Shown here: positions 14,416 to 36,455 of the stretch, in pieces
Position numbering within the stretch: position 1 is the first letter of the stretch
How the letters are laid out: each line of letters starts with the position of its first letter
Notes under the pieces: generated by a model
What the model saw: the letters and a program-made list of their open reading frames with translations, nothing else
Told to the model about the DNA's origin: nothing
Database searches by the model: none
Made by a program: the position numbers and the translations under genes
Origin: Rhodospirillales bacterium
Lineage (GTDB): Bacteria; Pseudomonadota; Alphaproteobacteria; SP197
Length of the DNA stretch: 64,000 nt
Assembly: GCA_014323865.1 (NCBI GenBank)
Contig: JACONG010000016.1
Span: 544,523-608,522 of the forward strand
Direction: 5' to 3'

Positions 14416-15816
14416 TTAGTTTTCCAGCATGCGTTCGAGAAGTTCCACATCCTCCGCGAAGGCGGGGTCACCGGCCATCAGTTCCTCCACCTTGCGCACC
14501 CCGTGCATGACCGTGGTGTGGTCCCGTCCGCCGAACTTCCGTCCAATCTCGGGCAGGCTGCGGCTGGTCAGGCGTTTGGCGAGATACATGGCGATCTGGC
14601 GCGGCCGGGCGATTGCCCGTTGCTTGCGGCTGGAGACCATATCGGCCATGCGAATGTTGAAGTGTTCGGCGACCTTCTTCTGGATTTCCTCGATCGTCAC
14701 GCGCCGGTCCTGGGCGCGCAGGAGGTCGCGCAGCAAATCCTGGGTGGAATCGAGCGTCACCGGCTGGCCGACCAGCTGCGCGTGCGCCAGAACACGGTTC
14801 AGGGCGCCTTCGAGCTCGCGGACATTCGAGGCGATTTTGTGCGCGAGGAACTCCATGACTCGCTGCGGCACGACCACGTCGGGGAACTGGGCGGCCTTGG
14901 TCTCCAAGATTCCCAGGCGTAGTTCGTAGTCGGCGGGATGGATGTCGGCCACGAGGCCCCAGCCCAGCCGACTCCGCAGGCGTTCCTCAATGCCGTCGAT
15001 GTCCGATGGCGAGCGGTCTCCGGAGATCACGACCTGGCGATTCTGATCGACCAGCGCGTTGAACGTGTGGAAGAACTCCTCCTGGGTTGAATCCTTGCCC
15101 GCGATGAACTGGATGTCGTCGATCATCAGCACGTCGACGGCGCGGAACTGATCCTTGAAAGCCATTGTGTCCTTGTAGCGAAGGGCACGGATGAACTTGT
15201 ACATGAATTTCTCGGCCGACATGTAGAGAACCCGCCGGCCCGGCTTCTTGGCCCGAATATGCCACGCGATCGCGTGCATTAGGTGGGTCTTGCCCAGGCC
15301 GACGCCGCCATAGAGGAAGAGTGGGTTGAAGGTGACCGAATCGGCTGCAGCGACACGCTGGGCCGCGGCATGGGCGAACTCGTTGGTCTTGCCGACGACG
15401 AAGTTTTCGAAGGTGAAGCGCGGATCGAGCAAAGCGGCAATCTTCTCGGCCTCGGCCACCGCATCAAGCATGTTGCCGTCATGGCGGATCATGTCGAGAT
15501 CGCGACGCACCGGCGTCACCTCCCGCCGCGGCGCACGGCGCTCAGGCCTGCCCACCTTGATGGTGATCCCACTGATGGCGTCGTTTTCACCGCACCACAG
15601 ATCGTGCAGGCGTTCGCCGCAGCGCGACATAACCCAGTCCTTCATGTTGCCGCTGGGCACACGCATGACGACCTCGTTGCCCGAGACTCCGTCAAGCGAA
15701 AGCGGGCGCAACCATGTCTTGAATGCTGCTTCGCCCAGTTCAGCGCGAAGGCGACCCCTGACCCGCTTCCACTGGTCTTCCACGTCCTGGTTGATCTTCA
15801 ACTGTTCAGACGCCAT
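14416..15816 (-). CDS. dnaA: Chromosomal replication initiator DnaA
   Basis: The AAA+ motifs GGVGLGKTHLMHAIA and the C-terminal HTH (RKFGGRDHTTVMHG) are present. Start chosen at MASEQLK, which has a GAGGAG RBS; the ORF extends to 15918. Confidence 0.95.
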   Translation of the reverse strand: MASEQLKINQDVEDQWKRVRGRLRAELGEAAFKTWLRPLSLDGVSGNEVVMRVPSGNMKDWVMSRCGERLHDLWCGENDAISGITIKVGRPERRAPRREVTPVRRDLDMIRHDGNMLDAVAEAEKIAALLDPRFTFENFVVGKTNEFAHAAAQRVAAADSVTFNPLFLYGGVGLGKTHLMHAIAWHIRAKKPGRRVLYMSAEKFMYKFIRALRYKDTMAFKDQFRAVDVLMIDDIQFIAGKDSTQEEFFHTFNALVDQNRQVVISGDRSPSDIDGIEERLRSRLGWGLVADIHPADYELRLGILETKAAQFPDVVVPQRVMEFLAHKIASNVRELEGALNRVLAHAQLVGQPVTLDSTQDLLRDLLRAQDRRVTIEEIQKKVAEHFNIRMADMVSSRKQRAIARPRQIAMYLAKRLTSRSLPEIGRKFGGRDHTTVMHGVRKVEELMAGDPAFAEDVELLERMLEN

Positions 15817-15919
15817 CAACGATCTCCTCGAAACGCCGCGCATGGGGGCTGCAGGCAGGGCAGCCGCTTGGCAGGCGGGCCTCATGCTGCACATGCGACC
15901 GGCGGTGTAAGCGTGCATT

Positions 15920-16385
15920 AACGACGGGCAGAGGCTTCTCGATTGAGGGGTGCGAAGACACCACGCCGCCAGTCAGTCGATATAAATTGCTGTTCATTTT
16001 CAACCCTTTAACCGCAAACTTCTACTCCACCACAGTCCCGTTTTTTGCGTGCGACAGGTTGCGAATGACCACCACTGTGTCCGAAGCTGAGCGCAACCTA
16101 CAATATTGCCGCGACTGCACGAGTCGTGGCCAGAGAAGGATTGGCGTCACTGCTTGTCGCCCCACCGGAACTATTATTCTTGAGGTCATCCCCGCGACCT
16201 TAATGAACCATAGAGCAAGGCCCTCGACGGAAACAACTGGATTAAAACAAGAACATCGATCGACGCAGCCACAATACATCTATAGATTGTATAAGTGAAT
16301 CATATGACAAAACAAGAAACGCGCCGGACCATTCGGTCCGACGCGTTGTCATCACAGGATCATGTGCAGCCCGCAGGACGTCCGA
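15920..16385. promoter_or_regulatory. AT-rich 466-bp non-coding region upstream of dnaA (dnaA promoter, candidate oriC)
   Basis: GC content drops sharply; there is an A/T tract at about 16250–16320 (…acaatacatctatagattgtataagtgaatcatatgac…). No perfect TTATCCACA box was seen by eye. Confidence 0.4.
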
Positions 16386-16646
16386 CTACATCTTGGCGAT
16401 ACGTTGCACCAGACGGGACACCTTTCGCGACGCGGCGTTCTTGTGCATCACGCCGGTCTTGGCGCCGCGCATGATCTCGGGTTGCGCCGAACGCAGCGCC
16501 TGGGTCGCGGCTTCCTTGTCGCCCTTGGCGATCGCTTCTTCGACCGAGCGCATGTAGCTGCGCACACGGCTCATACGGCTGCGATTAATGGCGGTTCGCC
16601 GGGCGGTTTGGCGCACGCGCTTCTTGGCTTGCATCGAGTTGGCCAT
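16386..16646 (-). CDS. rpsT: 30S ribosomal protein S20
   Basis: [33 protein letters not shown] is the canonical S20 sequence. Confidence 0.95.
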
Positions 16647-16841
16647 GGAATCTCCTGGCGCTTGGGTTCATTTTGGAGCGCGGCTTATAGCGATGCGGAT
16701 TGAGGGCGTCAACGGCAAGGAAACTGGCGATTCGCCGGTCACCATTGATGTCATCCAAATGAATTGGAAAAGCATCGTATTTCCGAATCGTGCGAATCGT
16801 TCGCGGCGGAACCTGTCGGTTTTCGTCGCAAGATCGTCACA

Positions 16842-22612: not shown

Positions 22613-22693
22613 ATCAAGAGTGGACTTTGTACGATTCCGTGAAAGATTAACGGCGCTGTCCTATATTGTGCAGTGCACAACAGGGTGAAACCG

Positions 22694-23899
22694 ATGCTCG
22701 ACGGCAAGCACGTCCTTCTCGTCATCTCCGGCGGCATCGCCGCATACAAGACGCCAGACCTTGTCCGGCAACTGACCAACCGGGGCGCTGGCGTTCGCTG
22801 CGTGATGACCGAAGGCGCCCAAGAGTTCGTGACACCGCTGACGTTGTCGGCTCTGACCGGCGACAAGGTCTTCACCGAGCTCTTCTCGCTCACCGACGAG
22901 GCGAAGATGAGCCATATACCGTTGAGCCGGGAGGCTGACATCGTCGTCGTGGCGCCGGCCACGGCCAATCTGATAGCGCGCATGGCGGCGGGTCTCGCCG
23001 ACGATCTGGTGACCACCGTTCTGCTGGCGACCGACAAGCCTGTCCTGATGGCGCCTGCCATGAACACGATGATGTGGAACCACGCTGCGACCCGGCGCAA
23101 TGCCGCACGGCTGGTCAGCGACGGGATTGCCATGGTCGGCCCGGAGGCGGGCGATCTCGCCTGCGGCGAGGTCGGCTCGGGCCGCATGAGCCAGCCCGTT
23201 GACATCGTCACGGCGATCGAGGCCACCTTGGCCGATGACGGCGCCCGGCCGCTTGCGGGTCACCATGCTCTGATCACCAGCGGACCGACCCACGAGCCGA
23301 TCGATCCCGTGCGCTACATCGCCAACCGCAGTTCGGGCAAGCAGGGCCACGCCATTGCTGCCGCCTGCGCCCGCCTCGGTGCACGTGTGACGCTGGTGTC
23401 GGGACCGGCCGCCCTCGACGATCCGGCCGGTGTCGATGTTGTCCGCGTCGAGACTGCGCGCGACATGCTCGGAGCCTGTGAGGCTGCGCTGCCCGCCGAC
23501 GTCGCCGTCTGCGCTGCCGCCGTGGCCGACTGGCGTGTCGCCCAGCCCGCCGACAGCAAGATGAAGAAGAACGGCGGCGCGCTGCCCACGCTCGCCTTAG
23601 CCGAGAACCCCGACATCCTTGCCGTGCTCGCCGGCCGCAACGACGGCCGCCCGCGGCTCGTCGTCGGGTTCGCTGCCGAGACCGGCGATGTCGTGACCTA
23701 CGCCCAGGGCAAGCTTGCGTCGAAGGGCTGCGACTGGATCGTCGCCAACGATGTCAGCGAAGGCACGGGCACCTTCGGCGGTGATGACAACACGGTCCAT
23801 CTCGTGACCTCGGCGGGCGTCGAGGACTGGCCGTGCATGTCGAAGCCCGCGGTCGCCGAACGGCTCGCCCGCTCGATCGCTGCCCACCTCGCCGCATGA
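22694..23899 (+). CDS. coaBC: Bifunctional phosphopantothenoylcysteine decarboxylase/phosphopantothenate-cysteine ligase
   Basis: [23 protein letters not shown] (flavoprotein domain) plus a C-terminal CoaB domain; the protein is 402 aa. Confidence 0.9.
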
Positions 23900-24345
23900 G
23901 TTTGAGGGTCCGGCTGATTCGGCTTGATCACGGGGCGGAGCTTGATCTGCCCGCCTATGCCACACCAGGCTCGGCCGGGGTCGACCTGCGCGCGGCGACC
24001 GATGACACCACGACGATCGAACCGGGTGACCACGCCATAGTCCCGACCGGCCTCGCGCTTGCGCTGCCCCAGGGTTACGAGGCCCAGATCCGGCCACGCT
24101 CGGGTCTGGCCGCCAGACATGCCGTGACCGTGCTCAACAGCCCCGGTACGGTCGACAGCGACTACCGTGGCGAGGTCAAGGTGCTGCTGATCAACCACGG
24201 CTACGAACCCTTCACCTTCGAGCGTGGTGAACGCATTGCCCAGATGGTCATCGCGCCGGTCGTCCAGGTGACGTTCGACAAGGTCGACACGCTCGATGAA
24301 ACCGCACGCGGTGCGGGCGGCCACGGCTCGACCGGCAGAGACTAG
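23896..24345 (+). CDS. dut: dUTP diphosphatase
   Basis: GSAGVDLRA…RSGLAARH…DSDYRGEV are the dUTPase motifs. There is an ATGA overlap with coaBC. Confidence 0.9.
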
Positions 24346-24354
24346 GAGACACCC

Positions 24355-24672
24355 ATGCTCGCGCTGCGGCCCAACTGCCAATACTGCGACAAGGACATGC
24401 CGCCCGACGTTCCTGATGCCATGATCTGCACCTAACCAGTCACCTTCTGCGCGGACTGCATCGAGGCGCATCTTCACAACGTCTGCCCGAACTGCGGCGG
24501 CCGTTTCGCGCTTTGCCCGACGATGGCGCCGCGCGAGGGCGTGTCGCTCCGGCATCAGCCGGCTTCGACCGAGCGTGTGCACCTCGGATATCCGAAGGAT
24601 GACATCGCCGCCTTCACTGCGCCCACCGGCACGTCCCGCCAGCCGAGCGTTGAGCGCGGCTTGCAAGGGTGA
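24355..24672 (+). pseudogene. DUF1272-family Cys-rich small protein gene with an in-frame TAA at 24433–24435
   Basis: MLALRPNCQYCDKDMPPDVPDAMICT-[TAA]-PVTFCADCIEAHLHNVCPNCGG… The stop replaces a residue between conserved Cys pairs. Confidence 0.5.
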
Positions 24673-24696
24673 TCCCGCCTGCCCACCTTTGGCAGC

Positions 24697-25521
24697 ATGG
24701 ACATCACCGACTTTACCGAAGAGCAGCTTCACCGCTACGCACGCCATATCGTCATGCCCGAGGTTGGCGGCGAGGGGCAGGTCAAGCTGCTCAATGCGAA
24801 GGTGCTGGTCGTGGGCGCCGGAGGCTTAGGCGCGCCACTCGTCATGTATCTCGCGGCAGCTGGTGTCGGCACGATAGGGATCGTCGACAATGACGTCGTC
24901 GAACCCTCGAACCTGCAGCGCCAGATCGCCCACACCAACGACCGAATCGGCATGCCCAAGACCGAAAGCGCCGAGACGACGATCAAGGCTCTGAACCCCG
25001 ACATCACCGTGATACGGCATCAGGAGCGTATCGAGCACCACAACGCACTCGAGATCATCGCGGGATACGATCTGGTCTGCGATGGCACCGACAACTTCCC
25101 CACGCGCTACCTGATCAACGATGCCTGCTATCTCGCGAGGAAGCTGCTGGTCAGTGCGGCGATGATGCGCTTCGACGGCCAGCTCACCACGTTCCGCGCT
25201 CACGAGGGCGACGAGAACCCCTGCTACCGCTGCCTCTTTCCGGAGGTACCGCCAGAGGGCCTGGTGCCGTCGTGCTCGGAAGCCGGCATCTTCGGCGCCA
25301 TCGCCGGGGTCATGGGCACGCTGCAGACGGCCGAGGTGCTCAAGGAGTTGATAGGCCTCGGCGAGAGCCTGGTCGGCACGCTGCTCATTTATGACGCGCT
25401 GGGCGCGGAGTTCCGCCGCGTAAAGTACGGCAAGGACCCCGACTGTGCGCTCTGCGGCAGCCGGGCCACCATCACCAACCTCTCTGGCCACGCCCAACAC
25501 GCCCGGAGGATGCAATCGTGA
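24697..25521 (+). CDS. moeB: Molybdopterin-synthase adenylyltransferase (ThiF/MoeB E1-like)
   Basis: Nucleotide-binding motif VLVVGAGGLGAPL, the catalytic Cys region, and two CxxC pairs (CYRC…CALCG). Confidence 0.85.
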   Translation: MDITDFTEEQLHRYARHIVMPEVGGEGQVKLLNAKVLVVGAGGLGAPLVMYLAAAGVGTIGIVDNDVVEPSNLQRQIAHTNDRIGMPKTESAETTIKALNPDITVIRHQERIEHHNALEIIAGYDLVCDGTDNFPTRYLINDACYLARKLLVSAAMMRFDGQLTTFRAHEGDENPCYRCLFPEVPPEGLVPSCSEAGIFGAIAGVMGTLQTAEVLKELIGLGESLVGTLLIYDALGAEFRRVKYGKDPDCALCGSRATITNLSGHAQHARRMQS

Positions 25522-25651
25522 GACTCCACAAATCTCGATTTCCGTCATGCCCCGGCTTGACCGGAGCATCCATCATCCGATTTGGCGGATCGCGATGGCG
25601 GACGATGGATCGCGCCATCAGGTGGGGGCGATGACGGTGGGAGAGTGGTCC

Positions 25652-26047
25652 ATGTCTGATCCCGCGCCCCTCGGTGTCGTCGTGCTTTCGGGTGCCTATG
25701 AACGGGTGCACTACGCGCTGATGATGGCCTCGGCCGCGGCGGCCATCGACCGGCCGGTGACGGTGTTTGTCACGATGGATGCGGTGCCGCTTCTGGTGAA
25801 GGACGAGGGCTGGCGGACCCTGATGGGATCGGAACGCGACGACGCGCTGAAGGCGGGCAACGTGGCCGATATCGAAACCCTGCTCGAGGCCTGTGCGGCG
25901 ATGGATGTCAGCTTCATGGTCTGTGAGGCCGGTTTGAAGGTCGAGGACACGCCGGCCGAGGCCATGCGCGACGATCTCGGCGTCGAGGTGACGGGGCTCG
26001 TCACGTTCTATGGCGCTGTCGGATCGGGCCGGATCGTCACGCTCTGA
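25652..26047 (+). CDS. DsrE/DsrF-like (YchN-like) family small protein
   Basis: A 131-aa protein with a GGGAGAG RBS. The pattern PLGVVVLSGAYERVHYALMMASAAAAIDRPVTVFVTMDAV has the alternating β/α hydrophobicity typical of the DsrE fold. Confidence 0.6.
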   Translation: MSDPAPLGVVVLSGAYERVHYALMMASAAAAIDRPVTVFVTMDAVPLLVKDEGWRTLMGSERDDALKAGNVADIETLLEACAAMDVSFMVCEAGLKVEDTPAEAMRDDLGVEVTGLVTFYGAVGSGRIVTL

Positions 26048-26147
26048 GCTTGATCTTCGGGTCGGATTTCATCACCGTATCACCGCCGTCCGGAACCACG
26101 GCGCTTCGCTCAAAGGGCCGCTTTCTCTCACCTTTGGAGAACGGACT

Positions 26148-27155
26148 ATGACGCAGAACTTCCCTACGCTTGAACCGGTCGAGCTCGCAGCCCTGTTCCA
26201 TGGTGATGCTGAGTCGCAGCGTGCCTGCGGCGAGGCCCTGCTGGCGGCCTTCCAATCGGCTAACGGGTTCGTCGTGACGGGCTTCCCGACCTCGGCATTG
26301 GTGGACGGGCAGGTCAACGACACTCTCGCCTTCTTCGATCTCGACGATCCCGAGCGACTGGCCCTTGCGACCCGGTGGCACCGCGATGATGCAACGCATT
26401 GCTACCGCGGCTACTTCCCGCTGCCGAAGGAGCGCGGCTGGGCGCACAACGAAATCTTCGACTTCGGCCCCGCCGTGATCTCCCGCGCGCCCGACGGCCA
26501 TCCGGTGAAGCGGTTTCTGGAAGAAGGCAACCAGTGGCCTGCGCGCGAACCGCATGACGGCTGGCGCGAGGGATCCGAGGCGCTCTTCGCTGACCTCCAC
26601 AAGCTGGCCCATGTGGTCATGGCTGCGCTGACCGATGCGCTCGACGATGACGCCGCGACCACGATGGACAAGTTCGGCGACGGCAACGGCACGCTCCGAG
26701 CCCTGCACTACCCGCCGCCGCCCGAGGGCTTCATCGCCTGCCACAAGGAAACACTGCCCGAGCGGGTCGATGCGGCCGGCCGGCGAATCATCACCCATCG
26801 TCACATTGATGCATGCGTGCTGTCGGTCCTCTGGCAGGACGCGGTCGGTGGGCTGCAGTACGAGAGCCGCGACGGCACCTGGTACGAGGTGCCCGCGGGC
26901 TGCGGGCGTCTCTCCATCCACGCCGGACGCGCGATGGAGCTGATGACCGGCGGGCGCATCAAGGGCACACCGCACCGGGTGGTCGGTGTCGGACAGGATC
27001 GTTGCTCGATGGGCTTTTTCCTGGAGCCCGACTTCGGCGCCGTGATCGGACGCGACGATGATGGAAACCCGATCACCTATGCCGACCACATGAAGGACGA
27101 TTTCGCCGATCTCGAGGTCTATGCCGATGTCATGGGCGACGCGGTCGCGGCCTGA
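26148..27155 (+). CDS. 2OG-Fe(II) oxygenase superfamily protein (isopenicillin-N-synthase-like)
   Basis: An N-terminal DIOX_N-like region, then a candidate Fe-binding triad: HxD in THRHIDACVLSVLWQD, followed by the distal His in GTPHRVV. RBS GGAGAA. Confidence 0.8.
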   Translation: MTQNFPTLEPVELAALFHGDAESQRACGEALLAAFQSANGFVVTGFPTSALVDGQVNDTLAFFDLDDPERLALATRWHRDDATHCYRGYFPLPKERGWAHNEIFDFGPAVISRAPDGHPVKRFLEEGNQWPAREPHDGWREGSEALFADLHKLAHVVMAALTDALDDDAATTMDKFGDGNGTLRALHYPPPPEGFIACHKETLPERVDAAGRRIITHRHIDACVLSVLWQDAVGGLQYESRDGTWYEVPAGCGRLSIHAGRAMELMTGGRIKGTPHRVVGVGQDRCSMGFFLEPDFGAVIGRDDDGNPITYADHMKDDFADLEVYADVMGDAVAA

Positions 27156-27326
27156 CCGGACATCGTCCAGAAGGCTCTTGACCCGGGTGCACTTCGTTCG
27201 CACATTTTGCCTGCCGGCTAATAACACGGCGTTTCGCAAACAAGGGCTATCTTTCGCCACCCAAGGGGATCGGCGGATTGTGGCGCTTGCGCCGGGTCCG
27301 CCCTCCCCGACGACGGAGGAACGGAC

Positions 27327-28334
27327 ATGCAAGCGCACTTTGAGAACGTCACCACCATTGATATCGCCGCGTTGTTCGACGACACCTCGGCCGTTCGACC
27401 CGCGATTGCAGTCGAGGTCGCGCGGGCCCTTGCCGAGCATGGCGCGTTTCTCGCTACGGGCTTTCCCGGCGGCGACGACATCGACAGGCGTATGGAGAAA
27501 CTGCTCGCCTTCTTCACCCTGAATCGCGCCGGCAAGATGAGCTGTGCCACGCGGCGCGACGATCCCGCCAGTCCCAATGTCAACCGCGGCTACATCGCGC
27601 CGCCCGAGGACAAAGGCTGGGCCTACAACGAGTTCTTCGACATCGGCCCCGACCCTGTGCCGTCGGTGCCGTCCGGCCTGCCTGCACGCGAGCTGCTCGA
27701 AGAGCCGACCCGCTGGCCGACGACAGAGCCCTATTCCGGTTGGGTCACCGAGTCGCGCGCGCTGTTCAACGATATGGTCGGCCTGTGCCGTGGTGTGCTG
27801 GGTGGCATGATGGAAGGTCTCGGTCTCGATCCTTCGCCGGCGTTGGCGCTGTGCGAAGGCAACAACGCCACCCTGCGGCTGCTGAACTATCCGGAAGTAC
27901 CCGACCATTTCGTGGCCGGCGAGGGCGAGGTCGTGCCTGAGCAGTTCGACGAACTGGGTCGTCGTATCCTGACCCAGCGCCATCTCGACATGAACCTTGC
28001 CTCGCTGCTGTGGCAGGACCCCGTGGGCGGGCTGCAGATGCAGGCGCCCGACGGCATCTGGCGCGAGGTACCTGTCGATCAGGGCGGTATCTCGGTGCAC
28101 AACGGCGTCATGATCGACCGCCTGACCGGTGGTCGGGTGCCGGGCACACCACACCGCGTGGCCGGACCCACGGGCAACCGCCGCTCGGTCGGCATGTTCC
28201 ACGAGCCCGATTTCTCGGCCCTGATGGACTCCGAAGAAAGCCGCCCGCCCGAGGTCTATGCCCGTCAGCTGCTGCGCCGCTACAAGGCCTACCCCGACAT
28301 GGCCCCCTTCATCCCCGACGAGATGGCTGCATGA
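27327..28334 (+). CDS. 2OG-Fe(II) oxygenase superfamily protein, paralog of 26148..27155
   Basis: Same architecture as the upstream paralog (TQRHLDMNLASLLWQD … GTPHRVA) and the same RBS context (GGAGGAACGGACATG). Confidence 0.8.
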   Translation: MQAHFENVTTIDIAALFDDTSAVRPAIAVEVARALAEHGAFLATGFPGGDDIDRRMEKLLAFFTLNRAGKMSCATRRDDPASPNVNRGYIAPPEDKGWAYNEFFDIGPDPVPSVPSGLPARELLEEPTRWPTTEPYSGWVTESRALFNDMVGLCRGVLGGMMEGLGLDPSPALALCEGNNATLRLLNYPEVPDHFVAGEGEVVPEQFDELGRRILTQRHLDMNLASLLWQDPVGGLQMQAPDGIWREVPVDQGGISVHNGVMIDRLTGGRVPGTPHRVAGPTGNRRSVGMFHEPDFSALMDSEESRPPEVYARQLLRRYKAYPDMAPFIPDEMAA

Positions 28335-28657
28335 CGATGACGTACCATGACACCACAATCCTCGACATCGCCCCGCTCTTCTCGAGCGGCGGCACCGCCT
28401 CGCTCGACCGGCAGATCGCCGAGGTGCTCGAAACCGAAGCGAGCTTCGTCGCCACGGGGTTCCCCGGCTGCGAGGGGCACGACAAGCGCGTCTCCGATGT
28501 TCTGCGCTTCTTCGACATGCCGCTCAAGGCGAAGATGACCTGCACTGTCCAGCAGCACCACGCGGCCCACAGCAACATCTATCGCGGCTGTCTGCTATCG
28601 TTGTTCCGCGACAGCAGGGCCATCGGCGTCGTTGCGATGGCGGCCGAAGCCGCCTGA
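28331..28657 (+). pseudogene. Truncated third 2OG-Fe(II) oxygenase paralog (N-terminal about 95 aa only)
   Basis: Its ATG overlaps the previous TGA (ATGA). MTMTYHDTTILDIAPLF…FVATGFPGCEGHDKRV parallels the N-termini of the two paralogs, then diverges after NIYRG and stops. The next gene starts at 28671. Confidence 0.55.
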
Positions 28658-28670
28658 GGCCGTGGCCGCG

Positions 28671-29291
28671 ATGAGTCTGGACGATGTCCTCCGCGACCTG
28701 AACGCGCTGCCCCGGAAGGCCGACGGCACCGTCTACGTGTCCGCGTTCAAGCCGCTTGCGCGGCGCCATCGCAACGACCATGCGCTCGCCTTGGCCCTGT
28801 GGGACACCGGCACGGATGTTGCGCGCCAGCTCGCCGTCCGCATCGCCGATCCCAGCCTGGCCGATGACCGCCTGCTTGAGACCTGGGTTAACGACCTGGA
28901 CGAATGGAGTCTGACGGATGCCTTCACGGCCCATGTCGTCAGGCCGTCGGCACTGGCGATCGAGAAATCCCATGCCTGGGCGCAGGCCGAACCGACCTTC
29001 GTGCGCCGGGCCGGGTTCGCGACCGTGGCGCAGTTGGCTTGGCTGCGGACAAGCGCGACCGAGGACATGGTTTTCCTCGCCTTTCTTCCCCGGATCGAAG
29101 CCGCCGCCACCGATGAGCGCTTCTATGTGAAGAAGGCCGTCAACTGGGCGTTGCGCGACATCGCCAAACGCAACGATGCGCTGTGTGAGCACGCCACGGC
29201 GCTTGCCATGTGCCTTATGGCCTCCGACGACACGACCGCCCGCTGGGTCGGGCGGCACCGCTGCAAGGAGTTCCTCGTCGATCCCGCTTAG
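28671..29291 (+). CDS. DNA alkylation repair enzyme family protein (AlkD/HEAT-like)
   Basis: …ALALALWDTG…FVRRAGFATVAQLAWL…ERFYVKKAVNWALRDIAKR matches the DNA_alkylation family pattern. Confidence 0.75.
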   Translation: MSLDDVLRDLNALPRKADGTVYVSAFKPLARRHRNDHALALALWDTGTDVARQLAVRIADPSLADDRLLETWVNDLDEWSLTDAFTAHVVRPSALAIEKSHAWAQAEPTFVRRAGFATVAQLAWLRTSATEDMVFLAFLPRIEAAATDERFYVKKAVNWALRDIAKRNDALCEHATALAMCLMASDDTTARWVGRHRCKEFLVDPA

Positions 29292-29775
29292 AAGAAGACG
29301 AACGAGACCGAGATTGTCGATAGCCTGCCGCAGATCGGGACGCCGAAGGTCGACCGCATCTGTCTGGCCGAACGCGACAACCAGGCTCTCGACCGCCGAA
29401 AGGCCGAAGACGCTGATGATTCCGATGCGCCTGACGGCTTACCCAACGATCTCAGCCGTCACATTGCCGCTGCGCCGTGCAAGGTGTTGGAGCGCGACGC
29501 GGCCTCGCCGCAAGCCCCTACATCGACGTAGGTGGCGATTTGCTGTCCGCACCGGTCTCTGCAATCCACATCGAGAAGGTGTTCGGTATGGTGCTCGATC
29601 CCGCCGATCTGCTCGACGACATTCCATTGGCCGAGATCGTTGAGGCGATCGCCGAGTCGGCACGATCCGGCCCATGACGATCAAGCTTGGTCTTTTCCCG
29701 CAGCTTTTCGTTGATTGTACACTCATTCAACAACCTGTCCCGCAGGAGGTGCGGCGATGAACGAGATCCGCACGA

Positions 29776-30964
29776 TTGACACGGAAAAACCCCTTTGCCG
29801 CCGTCGATGATTTGGTACGCCAAGGCATGGAGGCGCCGGTTGCCGATGCCAGGGGCCTGCCCAATGAAGCCTTCACCGATCCCGTGTTCCTGGAGCTCGA
29901 ACGCAAGCACCTGTTTGCACGAAGCTGGGTCTTCGCCTGCCCGCAGAGCGACGTTCCGAATCCGGGCGACGTGAAATGTCTCGAGGTTGCGGGGCGTCAT
30001 CTCTTCATGACCCGCGACCGCAAGGGTGCCGTCAGGATTTTCTTCAACGTCTGCTCCCATCGCGGCGCCAGGCTTGTGATCGAGGACCAGACGAAAGCCA
30101 CCGTCCTGACCTGCCCTACCACGATTGGTCCTTCGGGCTGGACGGCACGCTGCGCGGACGGCCGCACTATCACGCCCCGCTGGAGCATGACACCGTCGGC
30201 AGCAAAGCTGATCGCGACTGCCTCTTCGAGGTGCGCCCGGCAATCTGGCACGGCTGGGTCTTCGTCAACATCGACGGTCAGGCGCAACCGTTCGAGGACT
30301 ACATGGCGCCCGCCATGAAGGCCTATGTGGACTGGGACCTTGGCGCGCTCAAGCTGGTGCACTACCAGCCCTTCGACTTCCACGCGGCTTGGAAGCTCGT
30401 GATCGAGACCTTCTGCGACACCTACCACGTCTTTATGGTGGCATCCCGATCTTCATGCCGCGCAGACGCCGGCCGACTGTTTCACGATGCGGCCCGATAG
30501 TGCGCACATGTTCAACCACATCGTCATCGGCGCCGAAGGCGGTGGTCTGACGCCGGTTGAGGAACAACTTCTACCGGATATCCCGGGCGTCTCCGCCGAT
30601 CAGGAGTCGCTCTCACCCTTCTGCAACATCTTCCCCAACGTCACGATGGCGCTGTTCCGTTCGGCCGTGACCTTACTTCCAATACGAGCCGGTCGCCGTC
30701 GACAAGACCATCATGCGTGTCTGGTTCTACGTTGCGCCCGAAACCGCCGAGGACGAGGCCTACGCGCTGGGCCGCGAGGAGCTCTATGCCAATTGGGTAC
30801 AGCTCAACGCCGACGGTGCCGGGATCTGCCACCGTCTGCAGGAAGGCCCCAGCTGTGACGCCTACGACGGCGGCAGCTTCGTTCCCTACTGGGACGAGGG
30901 CAGGCTGCACTTTCACCGCCAGATCGCGGATGCGCTGCGCGGGGAAGGGTTGTTTGTGCGGTGA
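29776..30964 (+). pseudogene. Rieske non-heme iron oxygenase alpha subunit, at least 3 frameshifts
   Basis: The first Rieske motif CSHRG (CxH) is in frame A and the second, CPYHDW, only in frame C. The frame change is in a C-run (tgccctacc). The catalytic-domain pieces (ETFCDTYHVFMV…, then YFQYEPVAVDKTIMRVWFYVAPE…GEGLFVR) are in two further frames. Confidence 0.65.
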
Positions 30965-31020
30965 GACTGTTGCCGGGCTCGTGAGCCTTCAAAACGCGGT
31001 GACGGTACGCGCCTGGGAAA

Positions 31021-31067
31021 ACAAACAAAAAAGGCCGCCCCGGACATCCGGGGACGGCTTTGGATTT
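31021..31067. terminator. Bidirectional rho-independent terminator between the convergent Rieske pseudogene and ghrA-like gene
   Basis: AAACAAACAAAAAAG-GCCGCCCCGGA-cat-CCGGGGACGGC-TTTGGATTT. Confidence 0.6.
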
Positions 31068-31082
31068 CAGATCTTCGCGACA

Positions 31083-32072
31083 TCAGAGAAGCGTATCGAT
31101 CACCCGATCCGGCGGTTTGTGCCCGTCGGCGTAGGTCTTGATGTTGATGATGACCTTTTCGCCCATGTCGAGGCGGCCCTCGATCGTGGCCGAGCCCATG
31201 TGGGGCAGGAGCACGACGTTCTGAAGCGCCAGCAGCTTGGGGTTCACGGCGGGCTCATGTTCGAAGACGTCGAGGCCGGCGCCGGCGATCTCGTTGTCCC
31301 GGAGCATCCGTGTCAGCGCCGCCTCGTCGATGACCTCGCCGCGTGAGGTGTTCACGACCATCGCGTTTTTCTTCAGAAGCTTCAGGCGGCGGGCCGAGAG
31401 CAGGTGGAAGGTGGCGGGCGTGTGCGGGCAGTTGACCGAGATGATGTCCATGCGGGCGAGCATCTGGTCGAGGCTCTCCCAGTAGGTCGCCTCAAGCTCC
31501 TGCTCGGTGTCGTCGGGCAGCTGCCGGCGGTTGTGGTAGTGGATCGAGAGGCCGAAGCCACGCGCCCGGCGCGCCACGGCTGAGCCGATTCGGCCCATAC
31601 CGATTATGCCGAGCCGTTTGCCCCAGAGACGATGGCCCAGCATGTGGGTCGGGCTCCAGCCCGACCAGTCGCCTGAACGGATCAGGCGCTCGCCTTGGCT
31701 GACCCGGCGGATCACGTCGAGGATCAGCGCCATGGTCATGTCGGCGGTGTCCTCGGTCAGGACGCCCGGCGTGTTGGTCACGGTGATGCCGCGCTCGCGG
31801 GCCGCGGCGAGATCGATATGGTCGACGCCGGTACCGAAGTTCGCGACCAGTCGGAGATTCTCGCCAGCCTGGGCCAGAATACCCTTATCGATGCGGTCGG
31901 TCAGGGTGGGGACCAGGACGTCAGCTGTCTTGACTGCTTCGACCAGTTCGTCCCGACCCATCGGGTGATCATCGTCGTTGAGCCGGGTATCGAATAGCTC
32001 CATCATTCGTGTTTCAATGACGTCGGGCAGCTTTCTGGTTACAATGACAGTGGATTTTTTGGCTTGGGCCAT
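31083..32072 (-). CDS. D-isomer-specific 2-hydroxyacid dehydrogenase (glyoxylate/hydroxypyruvate reductase-like)
   Basis: The NAD-binding motif GIIGMGRIGSAVARRA and the catalytic R/E/H context (…NTSRGEVIDEAAL…LDVFEHEP). Start chosen at MAQAKKSTVIV. Confidence 0.85.
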   Translation of the reverse strand: MAQAKKSTVIVTRKLPDVIETRMMELFDTRLNDDDHPMGRDELVEAVKTADVLVPTLTDRIDKGILAQAGENLRLVANFGTGVDHIDLAAARERGITVTNTPGVLTEDTADMTMALILDVIRRVSQGERLIRSGDWSGWSPTHMLGHRLWGKRLGIIGMGRIGSAVARRARGFGLSIHYHNRRQLPDDTEQELEATYWESLDQMLARMDIISVNCPHTPATFHLLSARRLKLLKKNAMVVNTSRGEVIDEAALTRMLRDNEIAGAGLDVFEHEPAVNPKLLALQNVVLLPHMGSATIEGRLDMGEKVIINIKTYADGHKPPDRVIDTLL

Positions 32073-32175
32073 GCGTTTGCTGATTGCCTTGCTGCGAGGG
32101 AGGCCCGGGAGCTTCGGGCGCAGGGTCTTTAGCAAACACGATCACACGAAACAACGCAACGCGGCCTCCTTCCGG

Positions 32176-32649
32176 ATGCATGGCACGATTGCGCTTTTTC
32201 TCGTCGTGCTGATCGGGTGCGAAGCGGCCCAGGACCCGCTGCCTCTGCCCCGATTCGTGTCGCTCAAGGAAGACAAGGTCTTCATGCGCGCGGGCCCCGG
32301 CACGACCTACCCGATCAACTGGGTCTTCGTGCGCGAAGGCATGCCGATCGAGATCCTCCGTGAATATGAGGAATGGCGTTACGTGCGCGACCACGATGGC
32401 GTCGAAGGCTGGATGCACCGGATTATGCTGTCAGGCTCGCGCTCGGTGATCGTTGCGAGCCAGGTGGTGGCGACTGCCTACGACACGCCGAGGCGCGACG
32501 GCGCGCCGGTGTTCCGCGCGGACCCCGGGGTCCAGGGGGGGCTGATCTCGTGTGACGGCTCATGGTGCCGGATCGAGATCGGCGACGTGAAGGGCTGGAT
32601 GCTGATGGACGATCTCTGGGGTGTCTACCCGGAGGACGGGCAGGGCTGA
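32176..32649 (+). CDS. Secreted SH3b-domain protein
   Basis: A signal peptide (MHGTIALFLVVLIGCEA) followed by two SH3-like repeats (…VSLKEDKVFMRAGPGTTYPINWVFVREGMPIEIL… and …VFRADPGVQGGLISCDGSWCRIE…). Confidence 0.7.
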   Translation: MHGTIALFLVVLIGCEAAQDPLPLPRFVSLKEDKVFMRAGPGTTYPINWVFVREGMPIEILREYEEWRYVRDHDGVEGWMHRIMLSGSRSVIVASQVVATAYDTPRRDGAPVFRADPGVQGGLISCDGSWCRIEIGDVKGWMLMDDLWGVYPEDGQG

Positions 32650-32960
32650 TGGGGTTCACTCCCGGGGAGCGTCGGCTTGTCCCCGATCATGTCGGACGCC
32701 TTCTCGGCCATCATGATGACGGGAGTGTTCAGATTGGCCGAGACGATCGAGGGGATGATCGACGCGTCAACCACGCGCAGGCCTGTGACGCCATGAACAC
32801 GGTAGGCCGGATCAATCACCGCATCGGGACTCTGACACATGCGGCAGGCACCCGCGGGGTGATAGCCGCTCTCGGCATATCGCTGGACCCAAGCGTCGAC
32901 CTCGGCGTCCGTCCTGACATCGGGGCCCGGGGTCAGCTCGCGCCCGCGAACTGGTGTATG
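32625..32960 (-). pseudogene. C-terminal about 110-aa fragment of a GMC-family oxidoreductase (choline dehydrogenase-like)
   Basis: …SGYHPAGACRMCQSPDAVIDPAYRVHGVTGLRVVDASIIPSIVSANLNTPVIMMAEKASDMI is the GMC C-terminal signature. The coding sequence stops abruptly at the repeat-rich junction (about 32960). Confidence 0.65.
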
Positions 32961-32970
32961 TGGGGGGCGG

Positions 32971-33148
32971 GAAGTCTTTGGGAATCGTGACTATGCGTGA
33001 TGAGGCGTGACTATGCGTGATGGATCAAGGGGTTAGGGGTGGATTCGGGGTTGCTGAAAAGTCTTTCAGAATCGTCCGTTGAAACGGCCTTGCAGGGTCG
33101 TTTTCCGGGCGTTTTCTAGGGTCTGGAACGCCGGGATTTTCCGGGCGT
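32971..33148. repeat. Repeat-rich junction: tandem 19–20-bp repeat (CGTGACTATGCGTGATG ×2), direct repeats of TTTTCCGGGCGTTTT, and an imperfect repeat of GAAGTCTTTGGGAATCGT
   Basis: Seen directly at 32986–33022, 33092–33108/33130–33144, and 32971–32991/33056–33070. Confidence 0.5.
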
Positions 33149-33221
33149 TTTGGGGGGTCGCGAGATGGCGTCGAAACAGAGGCCGTCGGGGTGCGCCGGG
33201 CGGCGGTCGCTCGGAGCGGGT

Positions 33222-33734
33222 TCAGGCGAGGCAGAACCTGACGATCGGGCCTTCGACGGTGCGTCGTCCGGTTCCGTCTGGTCCGCTTTCGTCTGTCAGG
33301 GTGTATTCGGCGTTGGGGGGCGGGTGGCCGATCTTGTCGCCGTTCTTGTCGATCAGATGCGCGGGCATCCGCGCCTTGTGTCCGTCGGGGAAGGTGAACA
33401 GGGGCGAGAGGTGTTCGAGTTCGGTCTCGCCTCCGTCGAAGACCGGGGGCAGCTCGATGGCGATGCCCTGGTAGATCTCGCTCGGTGTATGGACGCCAGC
33501 CCATATGAAACCCAGCAGCCAGATGAGGTCGCCTGGGCTGTGGGCCGGGTCCTGGAGCCAGACCTGGATCTCGTCCTTGGCGAGCCATCCCGGCTCGCGT
33601 CCGTCGACCTGCTCGTTGAGCCATGGCACATCGCCGTGATCGCCGTCGAAGGTTCCGGCGACATCGTCCCACAGGATGGTCCGCATGGCGCGCCCGAACC
33701 GCCGGTCGGGCAGCATGATGGTGTGGATAGCCAT
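33222..33734 (-). CDS. Hypothetical protein (170 aa), unrecognised family
   Basis: Open frame with protein-like composition (…VPWLNEQVDGREPGWLAKDEIQVWLQDPAHSPGDLIWLLGFIWAGVHTPSEIYQGIAIELPPVFDGGETELEHL…). The opposite strand is an R-rich shadow. Confidence 0.4.
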   Translation of the reverse strand: MAIHTIMLPDRRFGRAMRTILWDDVAGTFDGDHGDVPWLNEQVDGREPGWLAKDEIQVWLQDPAHSPGDLIWLLGFIWAGVHTPSEIYQGIAIELPPVFDGGETELEHLSPLFTFPDGHKARMPAHLIDKNGDKIGHPPPNAEYTLTDESGPDGTGRRTVEGPIVRFCLA

Positions 33735-33848
33735 GTCAGGGATTGTAGTGGAACAGGACGCCGAAGACCAGATCCATTAGTTCGGGATCGTCGCGGGCGA
33801 GCGAGGCGATGTCGAGAATTTCTGTGGTGCCATCGGGCCGCGTCCTGG

Positions 33849-34764
33849 TTATCTGGTGGAATGTGATCTGGAACGCGCGCGTGACGACCTCAAGGGCGGG
33901 GCGGTCGCCATATTGCGGTGCACCGCCTGTATCAGCGGCAGGCGTTCGGGCACGTTCTCGAAACCGAGCTGGGCATCGCAGAGCGCGGCTGCAAGCGACG
34001 GCGCGACCATCAGGTTGGCCTCGACCGCCGCACGCTCCTCACCCTCGCTCCAGGAGACCGCATGCGCCTGCGAGTCCTGGGTCTTGCTGTCCTCGACATC
34101 GAACAGCCGGGTCGCGAGGCCTGCCCACGCACAGGCCCAGGCGACCCTGGTGCCTATGACGCCGTCGCCGACGATCCCGATCGGTCGGGCATGGTCGAAC
34201 GCCGGCAGGTCTGTCGATACAGGCTCAGTCCTCGAACTGGCTTTCGCGCCAGCGGATGGCAGCACTGAGGCCCTTCTCCGAACGGACCTTCTCGAACTGC
34301 TTGTACTGTTCGGGTTCGGCCGTATCAGGCCCTCGAGCGAGATCGTGGTGGCGCGGCGGGCATAACGCATGGTCTCTTCCTCGAGCTTGTCGTCGGGGAA
34401 GGCCTTGTTGACCGTGCCCATCGCCAGCGCCTCTTCGGCGGTGATGAGATCACCGGTGTAGAGCAGTTCACGGGTGCGCTTCAGGCCGATGATCCAGGGC
34501 ATGATCATCCCCGGCGGTGCAGTCGAGAAGCGGCTCTCCGGCTCGCCGAACATCGCGCTCTCGCCGGCGTAGGTGATGCAGCACATCATCGCGAGTTCGC
34601 AGGAACCGGTTATACTCGTTGCCCCACTCGTACTTCAGGTCGTCGCCCGCGCCGAAGTGGTCGCCGTCGTGCGTCAGGATGATGACCGAGACGTCGTCAT
34701 TCTCGTCGAGCTCGCACAGCACGCCGGAAAGTTCGGCCATAAATGGCGGGTTCATGGAATTCAT
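33849..34764 (-). pseudogene. Remnants of a FadB-like enoyl-CoA hydratase / 3-hydroxyacyl-CoA dehydrogenase gene
   Basis: ECH N-terminus (34764→: …VIILTHDGDHFGAGDDLK) and ECH C-terminus in a second frame (ITYAGESAMFGEPESRF…LLYTGDLITAEEALAMGTVNKAFP), with roughly 60 aa missing between them. HADH N-terminus (IGIVGDGVIGTRVAWACAWAGL…ENVPERLPLIQAV) ends at a stop at 33849. Confidence 0.55.
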
Positions 34765-34849
34765 CTTGGCGGCCCGGTTGATCGTGACCGTGGCGATAGC
34801 TGGTCGTCGGTCTGGATGAAGCCGCTGTCGATCAAACCCGATTGCGAGA

Positions 34850-35401
34850 TCAGCGTGATGTCGCCGGGGTCGATGCTGTTGCGTGTGCCGACCAAGGCGA
34901 TCTGGGTCTTTTTTCGTCGCGGTTGACGAAGCCCGAGCCGTTGCCTCCGCAGACCTGGAGTCCGGCCGCGCGCACCTTGGTCTGCAAGCGATCGAGCAGC
35001 AGTGGGTCGGTGTCGCCCTTGAGGTAGCAGGAGGCGAAGATCGTCACCGCCTTCATTCTGTTGGCGATCGCGTCGTCGAGCACGCCCTCAAGGCGCGCAT
35101 TCGCGACGTTCAGCATGGCGTACTCGACCGGCGTGCCGATCGCTGCGATGTCCGGGGAACACAGCCGGTCGTCGATCGCGTCGTCACGCGGGTTCACGAG
35201 GTGAACATCACCGTCGTAGCCGATGTCGCCGACACCGCGACAGGACTTCCAACCGAAGCTGTACTCCCTCGGCGACGCGCCGACGACCGCCACCGAGGTC
35301 AGGTTCAAAAGAATCCTGAGACGATGCTGACCACGGGAAAAGCTGTCTGACAAATGACTGGCGGAACTGTAGAGCGGATTGTACCGTCGGCAATCCCCCA
35401 T
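34850..35401 (-). pseudogene. N-terminal CoA-binding-domain fragment of an ADP-forming acyl-CoA synthetase
   Basis: LLNLTSVAVVGASPREYSFGWKSCRGV…VHLVNPRDDAIDD…AVTIFASCYLKGDTD…AGLQVCGGNGSGFVNRDEK, then the coding sequence decays and stops after about 180 aa; the expected full length is over 450 aa. Confidence 0.5.
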
Positions 35402-35543
35402 GAATCGAAATCGTTCCTCGACAGGCCCTCCCCCCTCCCGCCGCCAACGGATGTGGGAGGGTGAGGGCTCCGTCAGATTGCGACAGCATCGATCGCAAGA
35501 AGCGGAATGACAGGCGGAGCGGCAGTGTTGATAGTTCCCGCCC

Positions 35544-36455
35544 ATGACTGCCCGCCCCCCTGTTCTCGATAGCACCGCCTGGCTTCTTCTGATCGCGCTC
35601 TCGCTCGTGTGGGGCGCGTCGTTCTTCTTCGCCGAGGTGGCGCTTGCCGACCTGCCGCCGGTGACCATCGTTGCGGCCCGCATGGTGATCGGCGCGGCGG
35701 GGCTTTGGGTCATCGTCGCTATCGTTCGGGTCGTCCTTCCCCGGGATCGACGGACATGGTGTGACCTCCTGGTAATGGGGTTGCTGAACAACGCGCTGCC
35801 GTTCTGCCTGATCGTGTCGAGCCAGGTCTGGGTCACCGGCGGGTTCGCCAGTGTGCTGAATGCCACCACGCCCGTGTTCGGCGTCATCGCCGCCCACGTC
35901 TTCACCACTGATGAACGCCTCACGCCCAATCGGCTGGCGGGTGTCGTGCTGGGCTTCCTCGGCGTCGTCGTGCTGATGGGCCCGTCGATCCTTGGGAACG
36001 TCTCGGACCAGATCATCGGCGGCCTGCTGCTGATCGCTGCGGCGATCTCCTACGCGACGGCCGGTCTCTGGGGGCGGCGTCTGCGTCATCTGCCGCCGGT
36101 CAGCGCGGCAACCTGCCAGGCCAGTTGCTCGATGGTGATGCTGGTGCCGTTGGCGCTTGTCGTCGATGCGCCATGGGCGCTTCCCAACCCGTCGATCGAG
36201 GTCTGGCTCTCGCTCCTGGGTATCGGCCTGCTGTCGACCTCGCTCGCCTATCTGATGTTCTTCGCTATCCTCAAACGGGCGGGCGGCAGCAACGTCATGC
36301 TCGTGACGCTGATGGTGCCGCCCAGCGCCACCCTGCTCGGGGTGCTCGTGCTGGCCGAACCGGTCAGCACCGGGCAGCTCATCGGCATGGTCCTGATCTG
36401 TCTCGGCCTCGTCGCCATCGACGGACGCCTGCTGCGCCGGTTCCGAACGGCATGA
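35544..36455 (+). CDS. DMT-superfamily (EamA-like) transporter
   Basis: 10 predicted TM segments with the two-EamA-repeat architecture; 303 aa. Confidence 0.85.
   Translation: MTARPPVLDSTAWLLLIALSLVWGASFFFAEVALADLPPVTIVAARMVIGAAGLWVIVAIVRVVLPRDRRTWCDLLVMGLLNNALPFCLIVSSQVWVTGGFASVLNATTPVFGVIAAHVFTTDERLTPNRLAGVVLGFLGVVVLMGPSILGNVSDQIIGGLLLIAAAISYATAGLWGRRLRHLPPVSAATCQASCSMVMLVPLALVVDAPWALPNPSIEVWLSLLGIGLLSTSLAYLMFFAILKRAGGSNVMLVTLMVPPSATLLGVLVLAEPVSTGQLIGMVLICLGLVAIDGRLLRRFRTA

Follow-up and report, generated by a model that had tools for sequence, protein, structure and literature searches.

The subject of this analysis is a junction between a truncated oxidoreductase gene and a block of short repeats in a metagenome-assembled genome (MAG) of a Rhodospirillales bacterium. 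The junction lies in a 64,000-nt stretch of contig JACONG010000016.1 (assembly GCA_014323865.1, forward-strand positions 544,523 to 608,522), which is referred to below as the window and to which all coordinates apply unless another locus is named. A 3' remnant of a GMC oxidoreductase gene is adjoined, with rising coordinates, by a non-coding block, an intact open reading frame (ORF) designated X, a fragment of a gene for a Mu F-like protein (MuF), and a host pseudogene. The tip of the block abuts the GMC coding sequence, and X and the MuF fragment correspond to the two final genes of a Mu-like element family; the block itself is probably the right end of such an element. The features are as follows.

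32625..32958, minus strand: 3' remnant of a GMC oxidoreductase gene, about 110 codons, with the stop codon at 32625-32627 and the frame open up to the element tip
32959..33221, minus strand: probable right terminal region (R-end) of a Mu-like element, about 260 bp, non-coding, bounded by the TG/CA tip (32959-32960) and the X stop codon
32959..32990, minus strand: R1, terminal site TGTGGGGGGCGGGAAGTCTTTGGGAATCG, which includes the first AAGTCTTTGGGAATCGT copy (32972-32988) and the CA predicted to be cleaved
32986..33022, minus strand: tandem pair of the 17-nt repeat CGTGACTATGCGTGATG, exact copies starting at 32986 and 33006 with a 20-bp period, adjoining R1
33059..33075, minus strand: R2, internal site AAGTCTTTCAGAATCGT, 87 bp start to start from the R1 copy (32972) and in the same orientation
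33101..33159, minus strand: inner motif pair TTTTCCGGGCGTTTT, 23-nt units at 33101-33123 and 33137-33159
33222..33734, minus strand: gene X, intact 170-aa ORF, last gene of the element, with a function unassigned by any library match
33736..33903, minus strand: 3' fragment of the MuF gene, last 55 codons and stop, matched by tblastn to the C-termini of the portal-MuF protein of locus L003 and the MuF protein of locus L020
33903..34764, minus strand: fadB-like pseudogene, frameshifted and 3'-truncated (ECH_1 then 3HCDH_N), host DNA abutting the internal breakpoint of the element

The truncated gene and the terminal block

Translation of the minus strand at 32625-32951 gave a stop-free sequence of 108 aa that matched the Pfam domain GMC_oxred_C (E 6.5e-23, profile positions 54-139 of 139). 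The C-terminal substrate-binding domain of the GMC oxidoreductases (choline dehydrogenase BetA-like) is thus recognizable in the remnant, whereas their N-terminal part, the flavin adenine dinucleotide (FAD)-binding domain GMC_oxred_N, is missing, and no N-terminal domain was detected by Pfam ahead of the remnant. The remnant is a truncated pseudogene. Homologues carry the names choline dehydrogenase or 4-pyridoxate dehydrogenase in their sources; the homologue search returned short fragments only and no intact orthologous locus for sizing the deletion.

An independent 146-kb contig from a short-read metagenome (L088; JGI 3300017829, contig Ga0189853_1000004) was 100% identical to the window from 22625 to 33057 and had the same junction between the GMC gene and the repeats, base for base. 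This contig stops at 33057, within the R-end and just before R2. Such a stop is expected where short-read assembly meets a repeated element, and it indicates more than one copy of the element's inner part in that sample.

The initial annotation had reported that only the last ~110 codons of the GMC gene are left and that three repeat pairs lie at the junction, and both statements agree with our data. The copies of TTTTCCGGGCGTTTT at 33101 and 33137 are exact and extend to 23 nt, and AAGTCTTTGGGAATCGT at 32972 matches AAGTCTTTCAGAATCGT at 33059 by 88%; for each repeat pair, the observed count was reached in none of 100 shuffles. On the plus strand, the tip reads TGTGGGGGGCGGGAAGTCTTTGGGAATC, in which the TG at 32959-32960 corresponds to ...CCCCACA read outward. 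No further copies of the three pairs were found elsewhere in the 64-kb window. Neither sigma-70-like promoter matches nor significant DNA structure was detected in the block by promoter/terminator scanning and DNA folding, and Rfam and tRNA scans of the window gave no matches. Against a plasmid collection, searched in near and distant modes, the neighbouring dehydrogenase was matched and the repeat block was not. Overall, the remnant of the element extends from 32959 to ~33903 (~945 bp) and comprises a perfect right tip, intact X, the MuF fragment, and an internal breakpoint.

The same end in other genomes and the full-length relatives

A scan for X with one genome per species yielded 92 relatives, from which 80 loci were kept (individual loci are given L numbers). 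Positions 32965-33906 of the window were homologous to a unit present at other sites of OZ242015.1, an alphaproteobacterial MAG of 3.75 Mb. The OZ242015.1 copies have, 3' of X, a terminal GGAAAGTCTTTGTGAATCG, short tandem repeats, an internal GGAAAGTTTTTAAGAATCC, and GAAACGGCG-type motifs. Eight ends from seven genomes, namely the window and seven elements from six other genomes, were aligned (alignment A4). From the tip inward, the order was R1, 2-4 tandem units, a CCCTTGAT block, R2 (CGATTCTGAAAGACTTT), and two GAAAACGCCCGGAAAA-type motifs. According to this architecture, all three repeat pairs of the window map to conserved modules of the end.

The consensus of the R1 tip, GATTC(A/C)CAAAGACTT followed by 8-13 nt and then ACA (..CCCCACA), had copies in at least seven genomes and was found at tips in OZ242015.1, CATOSB01, CBDBCL01, JACOMY01, OZ241868, CBDFKJ01, and CBDAQD01. 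In at least 16 copies, the tip ...AAAGACTT(8-13 nt)ACA was followed by unrelated flanks. R2 of the relatives reads CGATTCT(G/T)AAA(G/A)ACTT, and the position of the inner motifs is occupied by motifs of the GAAA(A/C)GCCCGGAAA(A/T) type. The tandem module of the other lineages consists of 2-4 units of ~10-11 bp with differing sequence, e.g., CCGCCTCTTC x3 or GGGATAGGTC x3. Thus, the sequence and copy number of the repeats between R1 and R2 (A4 columns ~345-400) vary by lineage and their position is constant. The period is ~10-11 bp, or 20 bp for the window copy, which points to a module that is either architectural and phased or prone to slippage.

A profile of the R-end was built from the R2-to-tip part of A4, so its eight training sequences match it by construction; it detected ends 3' of X in 42 of the 80 loci. 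The window contained one match only, 33118-32959, which ended exactly on the tip. The repeats therefore recur elsewhere and are not unique to this site, in line with the earlier mention of them as candidate att-like or MITE-like sequences. In ten near-identical copies from CATOSB01, a Rhodobacteraceae MAG, homology extended for more than 6 kb 5' of X and ceased ~355 bp past the X stop codon at ...CCCAAAGACTTTTGTCACCCCACA. Beyond the tip, the flank was different in every copy.

Full-length relatives of ~15 kb were found on at least 12 contigs of CATOSB01 (L084-L087, L017-L026). Their upstream region was found via terminase P0104 (12 contigs), with 10 kb more flank taken; the left ends lie beyond the 10-kb flank, outside the fetched loci. 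The left part of the element contains small leftward genes and the genes of a 260-aa protein, a transposase (rve + Mu-transpos_C), and an AAA_22 ATPase. These are followed by DUF3164, GemA, an N6/N4 methyltransferase, Mor, DUF2730, Mu gp27, the large terminase (TerL), and Portal_Mu. The last part comprises the 518-aa Mu F-like protein (Phage_Mu_F), in some copies a DCD-like gene and an insertion sequence (IS), then X and the tip. The IS found in some copies are DDE_Tnp_1, between DCD and X, and DDE_3, in the early region. Genes of a MuA-type transposase and a MuB-type ATPase are present in L084-L087. Judging from these domains, the gene set corresponds to the early region of a Mu-like transposable phage plus its packaging part.

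In OZ242015.1, the element family has a second arrangement. A single 1061-aa ORF (L003, 6805-9990) combines the Mu portal with MuF and includes an HEYVHH C-terminal domain, and a Phage_tail_S (Mu G-like) gene lies between X and the element end.

No protease/scaffold, capsid, or tail genes were called in the ~15-kb element of CATOSB01, in which X is followed by host genes; the genes past the tip vary by copy and include those of a DegP-like protease, Toprim, TrbL, and a portal of the HK97 or gene transfer agent (GTA) type. Capsid and tail domains were likewise found neither 3' of X or G in L045 nor in the gene calls of L003, and no capsid genes were found 3' of X/G in L014 and L047, for which the ORF and third-position G+C (GC3) pattern was the only evidence. 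Scanning IMG/VR with the X alignment gave no relatives. The ~15-kb elements could be transposable satellites that need a helper phage or a GTA for capsids. In L087 (17377-20506), the tip is located directly 5' of a Phage_portal/CLP_protease/Phage_capsid cluster (HK97- or GTA-like), which is either an insertion into or beside a GTA-type cluster or a coincidence.

Mini-elements of 1.4-1.8 kb, with both ends and without a transposase, are present in several copies in CBDBCL01 and JACOMY01. In several loci, they are bounded upstream by an inverted copy of R1 (TGTAGCGCGCCAAAGTCTTTTCAAATCC...); the left tips in L028, L030, and L056 read TGTAGCGCGCC... Within L028, a mini-element of 1.8 kb, the left end pairs with the R2 region as an inverted repeat of 56 nt. 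Two shorter pairs are present as well, and a second motif type, CCGGATTTTCCAG, which is related to the inner motif of the window, is inverted at both ends (pair I4).

Gene X, the MuF C-terminal domain and comparison with known systems

The product of X was 100% identical to the hypothetical protein with locus tag GDA49_11770 of a Rhodospirillales bacterium MAG; an exact look-up of X in the contig index gave no record. Counts of X paralogues in OZ242015.1 reached 13, and CATOSB01 had at least 10 near-identical copies. Relatives were also found in Gammaproteobacteria, Pseudomonadales, Hyphomicrobiales, Defluviicoccus, and a Candidatus Poribacteria MAG. The family is small, with 157 cluster representatives among 1.84 billion proteins, and searches of Pfam, PHROGs, NCBIfam, PADLOC, PDB, and 50,697 phage records gave no match for X. 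The AlphaFold2 model of X, based on 10 sequences, had a mean confidence score (pLDDT) of 56 and was too poor for a fold search. An intact ORF was present in all 10 of the OZ242015.1 copies examined.

In the window, the C-terminal residues of MuF are ...PALEVVTRAFQITFH...DDPELMDLVFGVLFHYNP*, the region of the HEYxHH motif is absent from the fragment, and 1 nt separates the MuF stop from the X ATG. The spacing between the MuF stop and X is 1-13 nt in most copies; the DCD-like gene and IS intervene in some CATOSB01 copies. PF04233 covers residues 65-195 of the 518-aa L020 MuF and residues 595-711 of the 1061-aa L003 portal-MuF. The N-terminal half of MuF matches the F proteins of known Mu-like phages, whereas its C-terminal ~270 residues had no counterpart in the 50,697 phage records. 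This C-terminal domain also had no match in Pfam, NCBIfam, PADLOC, or PDB. HEYxHH was invariant in it according to an alignment of 12 full-length copies. In 39 of the 80 loci, only a C-terminal piece of MuF was detectable 5' of X, and the breakpoints were many and different.

The relatives share several properties with phage Mu and Mu-like prophages: TG...CA termini, several imperfectly repeated sites per end, and insertion at unrelated sites, including inside genes. The full-length relatives also have the rve + Mu-transpos_C transposase, AAA ATPase, GemA, Mor, gp27, Mu-type large terminase, portal, and F. The right end of phage Mu, the sequence of which we examined, contains repeated 22-nt sites and a CA tip and has no sequence similarity to the window end. 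Two 22-nt sites are adjacent in Mu attR, whereas R1 and R2 are 87 bp apart with a tandem module. Unlike Mu, the ~15-kb relatives stop after MuF-X, with no protease/scaffold, capsid, or tail genes seen, and are found on at least 12 contigs of one genome. Another difference from Mu is the extra HEYxHH-containing C-terminal domain of their 518-aa MuF, followed by X, both of which are absent from the 50,697 phage records.

Two other systems are comparable. The MuF polymorphic toxins of temperate phages (PMC5576092) also have an N-terminal PF04233 domain and a long C-terminal extension followed by a small domain-less ORF; the extension described here differs in that it contains no recognized toxin domain, only an HExxH-like motif, and in that it is conserved, not variable, among 12 elements. 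Deletion derivatives such as mini-Mu or miniature inverted-repeat transposable elements (MITEs) resemble the 1.4-1.8-kb units of CBDBCL01 and JACOMY01, which have both ends and no transposase. However, the derivatives described here always keep the MuF C-terminal fragment and X, and the window copy has the right end only.

Origin of the junction

We interpret the junction as the right end (attR-like R-end) of a Mu-like element, mobilized by a DDE transposase and inserted into the GMC oxidoreductase gene, and we assign this interpretation a probability of about 0.85. Events of this type are ordinary, but no description exists of the element family, which has many copies in marine symbiont-type genomes. 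The repeats had initially been read as the scar of an insertion/excision or illegitimate recombination event. Insertion and a junction with mobile DNA were correctly recognized in that proposal, but the repeats are the conserved, built-in end of an element that is still there. One illegitimate recombination breakpoint probably exists, at the other side of the remnant (~33903), where the element meets the fadB-like pseudogene. The 170-aa ORF and the gene remnants downstream are real, as the initial annotation stated; the ORF, taken there for an unrecognized neighbour, is the last gene of the element and follows the last 55 codons of MuF.

The proposed history is that a Mu-like element transposed into the GMC gene and that a later deletion would have taken away ~14 kb of this element together with four-fifths of the gene, from its 5' end, and neighbouring DNA. 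The deletion would extend from within MuF leftward, past the transposase genes and the left end, into the fadB-like gene at ~33903, and may have occurred by illegitimate recombination or by recombination with another decayed copy. DNA homology to L001, L002, L006, and L015 ends at ~33902. On the host side, Pfam ECH_1 and 3HCDH_N (positions 2-102 of 180) were detected on ORFs 33849-34589 and 34468-34764, and the 3HCDH homology ends at ~33903. The R1/R2 pair (AAGTCTTT..GAATCG) and the TTTTCCGGGCGTTTT pair are putative transposase-binding sites, several per end as for MuA, which binds and assembles on several sites at each Mu end; the tandem 17-mers may be a variable spacer or an architectural module. 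The remnant is presumably immobile, since it has no left end and no transposase.

Several observations weigh against this interpretation. Neither a transposase, nor a left end, nor a second copy or any other piece of the element was found in the 64-kb window, and we infer mobility from relatives in other genomes. Transposase binding of the repeats is a prediction by analogy with MuA, supported by how well the repeats are conserved, by the order in which they stand, and by their inverted copies at the left end. No full-length OZ242015.1-like element, i.e., one of the window lineage, with a left end was recovered. A 5-bp target duplication could be demonstrated in no copy: for L028 and L033, the only copies with both tips, the flanks on the two sides of the element do not match, which could be explained by recombination between copies or by nesting. 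In OZ242015.1, a 1.1-kb unit of the MuF C-terminal fragment, X, and the R-end (L002, 9655-10752, the same place as L010) interrupts pepA seamlessly, without the last 6 bp of the tip and without a left end; the spliced frame of this pepA (Peptidase_M17) pseudogene is ...LGMGAMLAVAQ/GSEREPRLAVLKW... The structure of L002 indicates that not every copy came by clean DDE transposition, and microhomology-mediated capture is possible. Moreover, the junction at ~33903 is represented in one assembly, in which a mis-join within the repeated interval 33057-33903 is possible.

The seamless seating of L002 in pepA, with neither tip nor left end, is also one of the observations that speak for another origin of the ~1-kb unit (MuF C-terminal fragment, X, and R-end). 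This unit could have arrived as a short fragment or have been kept preferentially with X under selection, for instance if X were an immunity protein or antidote against the HExxH C-terminal domain of MuF, in an orphan toxin-CT/immunity cassette. The many breakpoints in the 39 loci that retain only C-terminal MuF 5' of X, the intactness of X in ten OZ242015.1 copies, the 1-nt gap between the MuF stop and the X start, and the invariance of HEYxHH in the 12 full MuF copies are in line with such a cassette, as is the combination of a phage-like N-terminal half of MuF with a C-terminal half and an X that lack counterparts in the phage records. In the MuF proteins described by Jamet et al. 2017 (PMC5576092), the C-terminal extension is a toxin or of unknown type and small immunity ORFs lie downstream, and the arrangement of the MuF C-terminal domain and X recalls these MuF/immunity pairs. 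However, across lineages the C-terminal domain and X are conserved along with MuF and are not polymorphic, and no known toxin or immunity domain was detected in either of them. The long ORFs 5' of X in other loci contained no alternative delivery domains; one of them corresponds to the host ccmF/ccmH genes. The dN/dS of X against the OZ242015.1 copies was 0.29-0.42, and such values (0.3-0.4) mostly reflect between-lineage divergence and are not proof of selection after decay. The window tip is perfect and abuts the GMC gene, as transposition predicts. We therefore consider the arrival or retention of a separate short unit rather unlikely. A broader proposal joins the two lines of thought: the window remnant would derive from an undescribed Mu-derived, capsid- and tail-less class of ~15 kb (transposase module, gp27, TerL, portal, long MuF, and X), multiplying in marine (sponge-type) symbiont MAGs of several phyla, and the terminal MuF HExxH domain and X would form a toxin/antidote or exclusion pair. 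As a whole, this proposal is tentative, and we lean against it.

Explanations that do without a Mu-like element are far less probable. The repeats are intergenic, and the stop of the JGI contig at 33057 implies that 33057-33903 is repeated in the sample, so that a mis-join is conceivable; the block could be a local regulatory region (operators or promoter) of its neighbours, or the junction an assembly chimera at a repeat. We find this very improbable, because the block is situated 3' of X, in place of the 5' part of the GMC gene, is free of sigma-70-like promoter matches and significant structure, and is always terminal with unrelated flanks in other genomes, and because the junction between the GMC gene and the tip was reproduced base for base in a second assembly. 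Short direct repeats beside a truncated gene also resemble arm-type sites, and mini-elements of 1.4-1.8 kb with terminal inverted repeats do exist, as would suit a recombination (att) site of an integrase-mobilized island or an integron- or MITE-type element unrelated to Mu-type transposition. Nevertheless, the window contains no tRNA gene, and a scan of ORFs close to the junction revealed no integrase or recombinase. None was seen in the full-length relatives either, which instead of a tyrosine or serine recombinase have an rve/Mu-transpos_C transposase and an AAA_22 ATPase. The ends are TG...CA, and the mini-elements are internal-deletion derivatives that still bear the MuF C-terminal fragment and X. 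The probability of an origin of this kind is close to negligible.

Other genes of the window and significance of the element family

Decayed genes are also found around the remnant. The interval 33903-36016 of the minus strand is a run of decayed genes, with the fadB-like gene and, within a long spurious ORF (34850-36016), a fragment of CoA_binding_2; on the opposite strand, an EamA transporter gene (35544-36455) appears to be intact. At 29776-30960 on the plus strand, a gene of the alpha subunit of a Rieske/ring-hydroxylating oxygenase is split over several frames and is a pseudogene. It is identical in the JGI contig, which indicates that it is no sequencing error peculiar to the MAG. The Rieske and CoA_binding pseudogenes are in keeping with frequent deletional decay in this genome.

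In another part of the window (14416-15918, minus strand, and 15950-16800), dnaA is located beside the kilobase of lowest G+C content (0.567 vs ~0.65), followed by fpg/mutM; the low-GC intergenic stretch by dnaA is a candidate region for the replication origin. An ORF with an HNH_2 endonuclease domain (58946-59872, plus strand) lies in a second patch of low G+C content (0.587), with a GNAT acetyltransferase gene on one side and purD on the other, and may be a small foreign insertion.

For the locus itself, insertion of a Mu-like element followed by deletion explains the repeat block, the orphan ORF, the truncation of the GMC gene, and the break of the contig in another assembly. What is new here, as far as can be judged from sequence comparison, is a multi-copy element family that is capsid- and tail-less so far as seen and has a terminal module of the MuF C-terminal domain and X that is absent from phage catalogues. 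The end motif and X are markers for this Mu-like family, which is missed by phage and defence catalogues (no match in IMG/VR, INPHARED, PHROGs, or PADLOC). If the MuF C-terminal domain and X do form a toxin/antidote or exclusion pair, this would explain the survival of X and the R-end at dozens of decayed loci, the window included. The family also bears on the role of MuF C-terminal extensions. It is high-copy and gene-disrupting in symbiont-type genomes that appear pseudogene-rich, and it therefore bears on the part played by mobile DNA in the genome erosion of host-associated bacteria.

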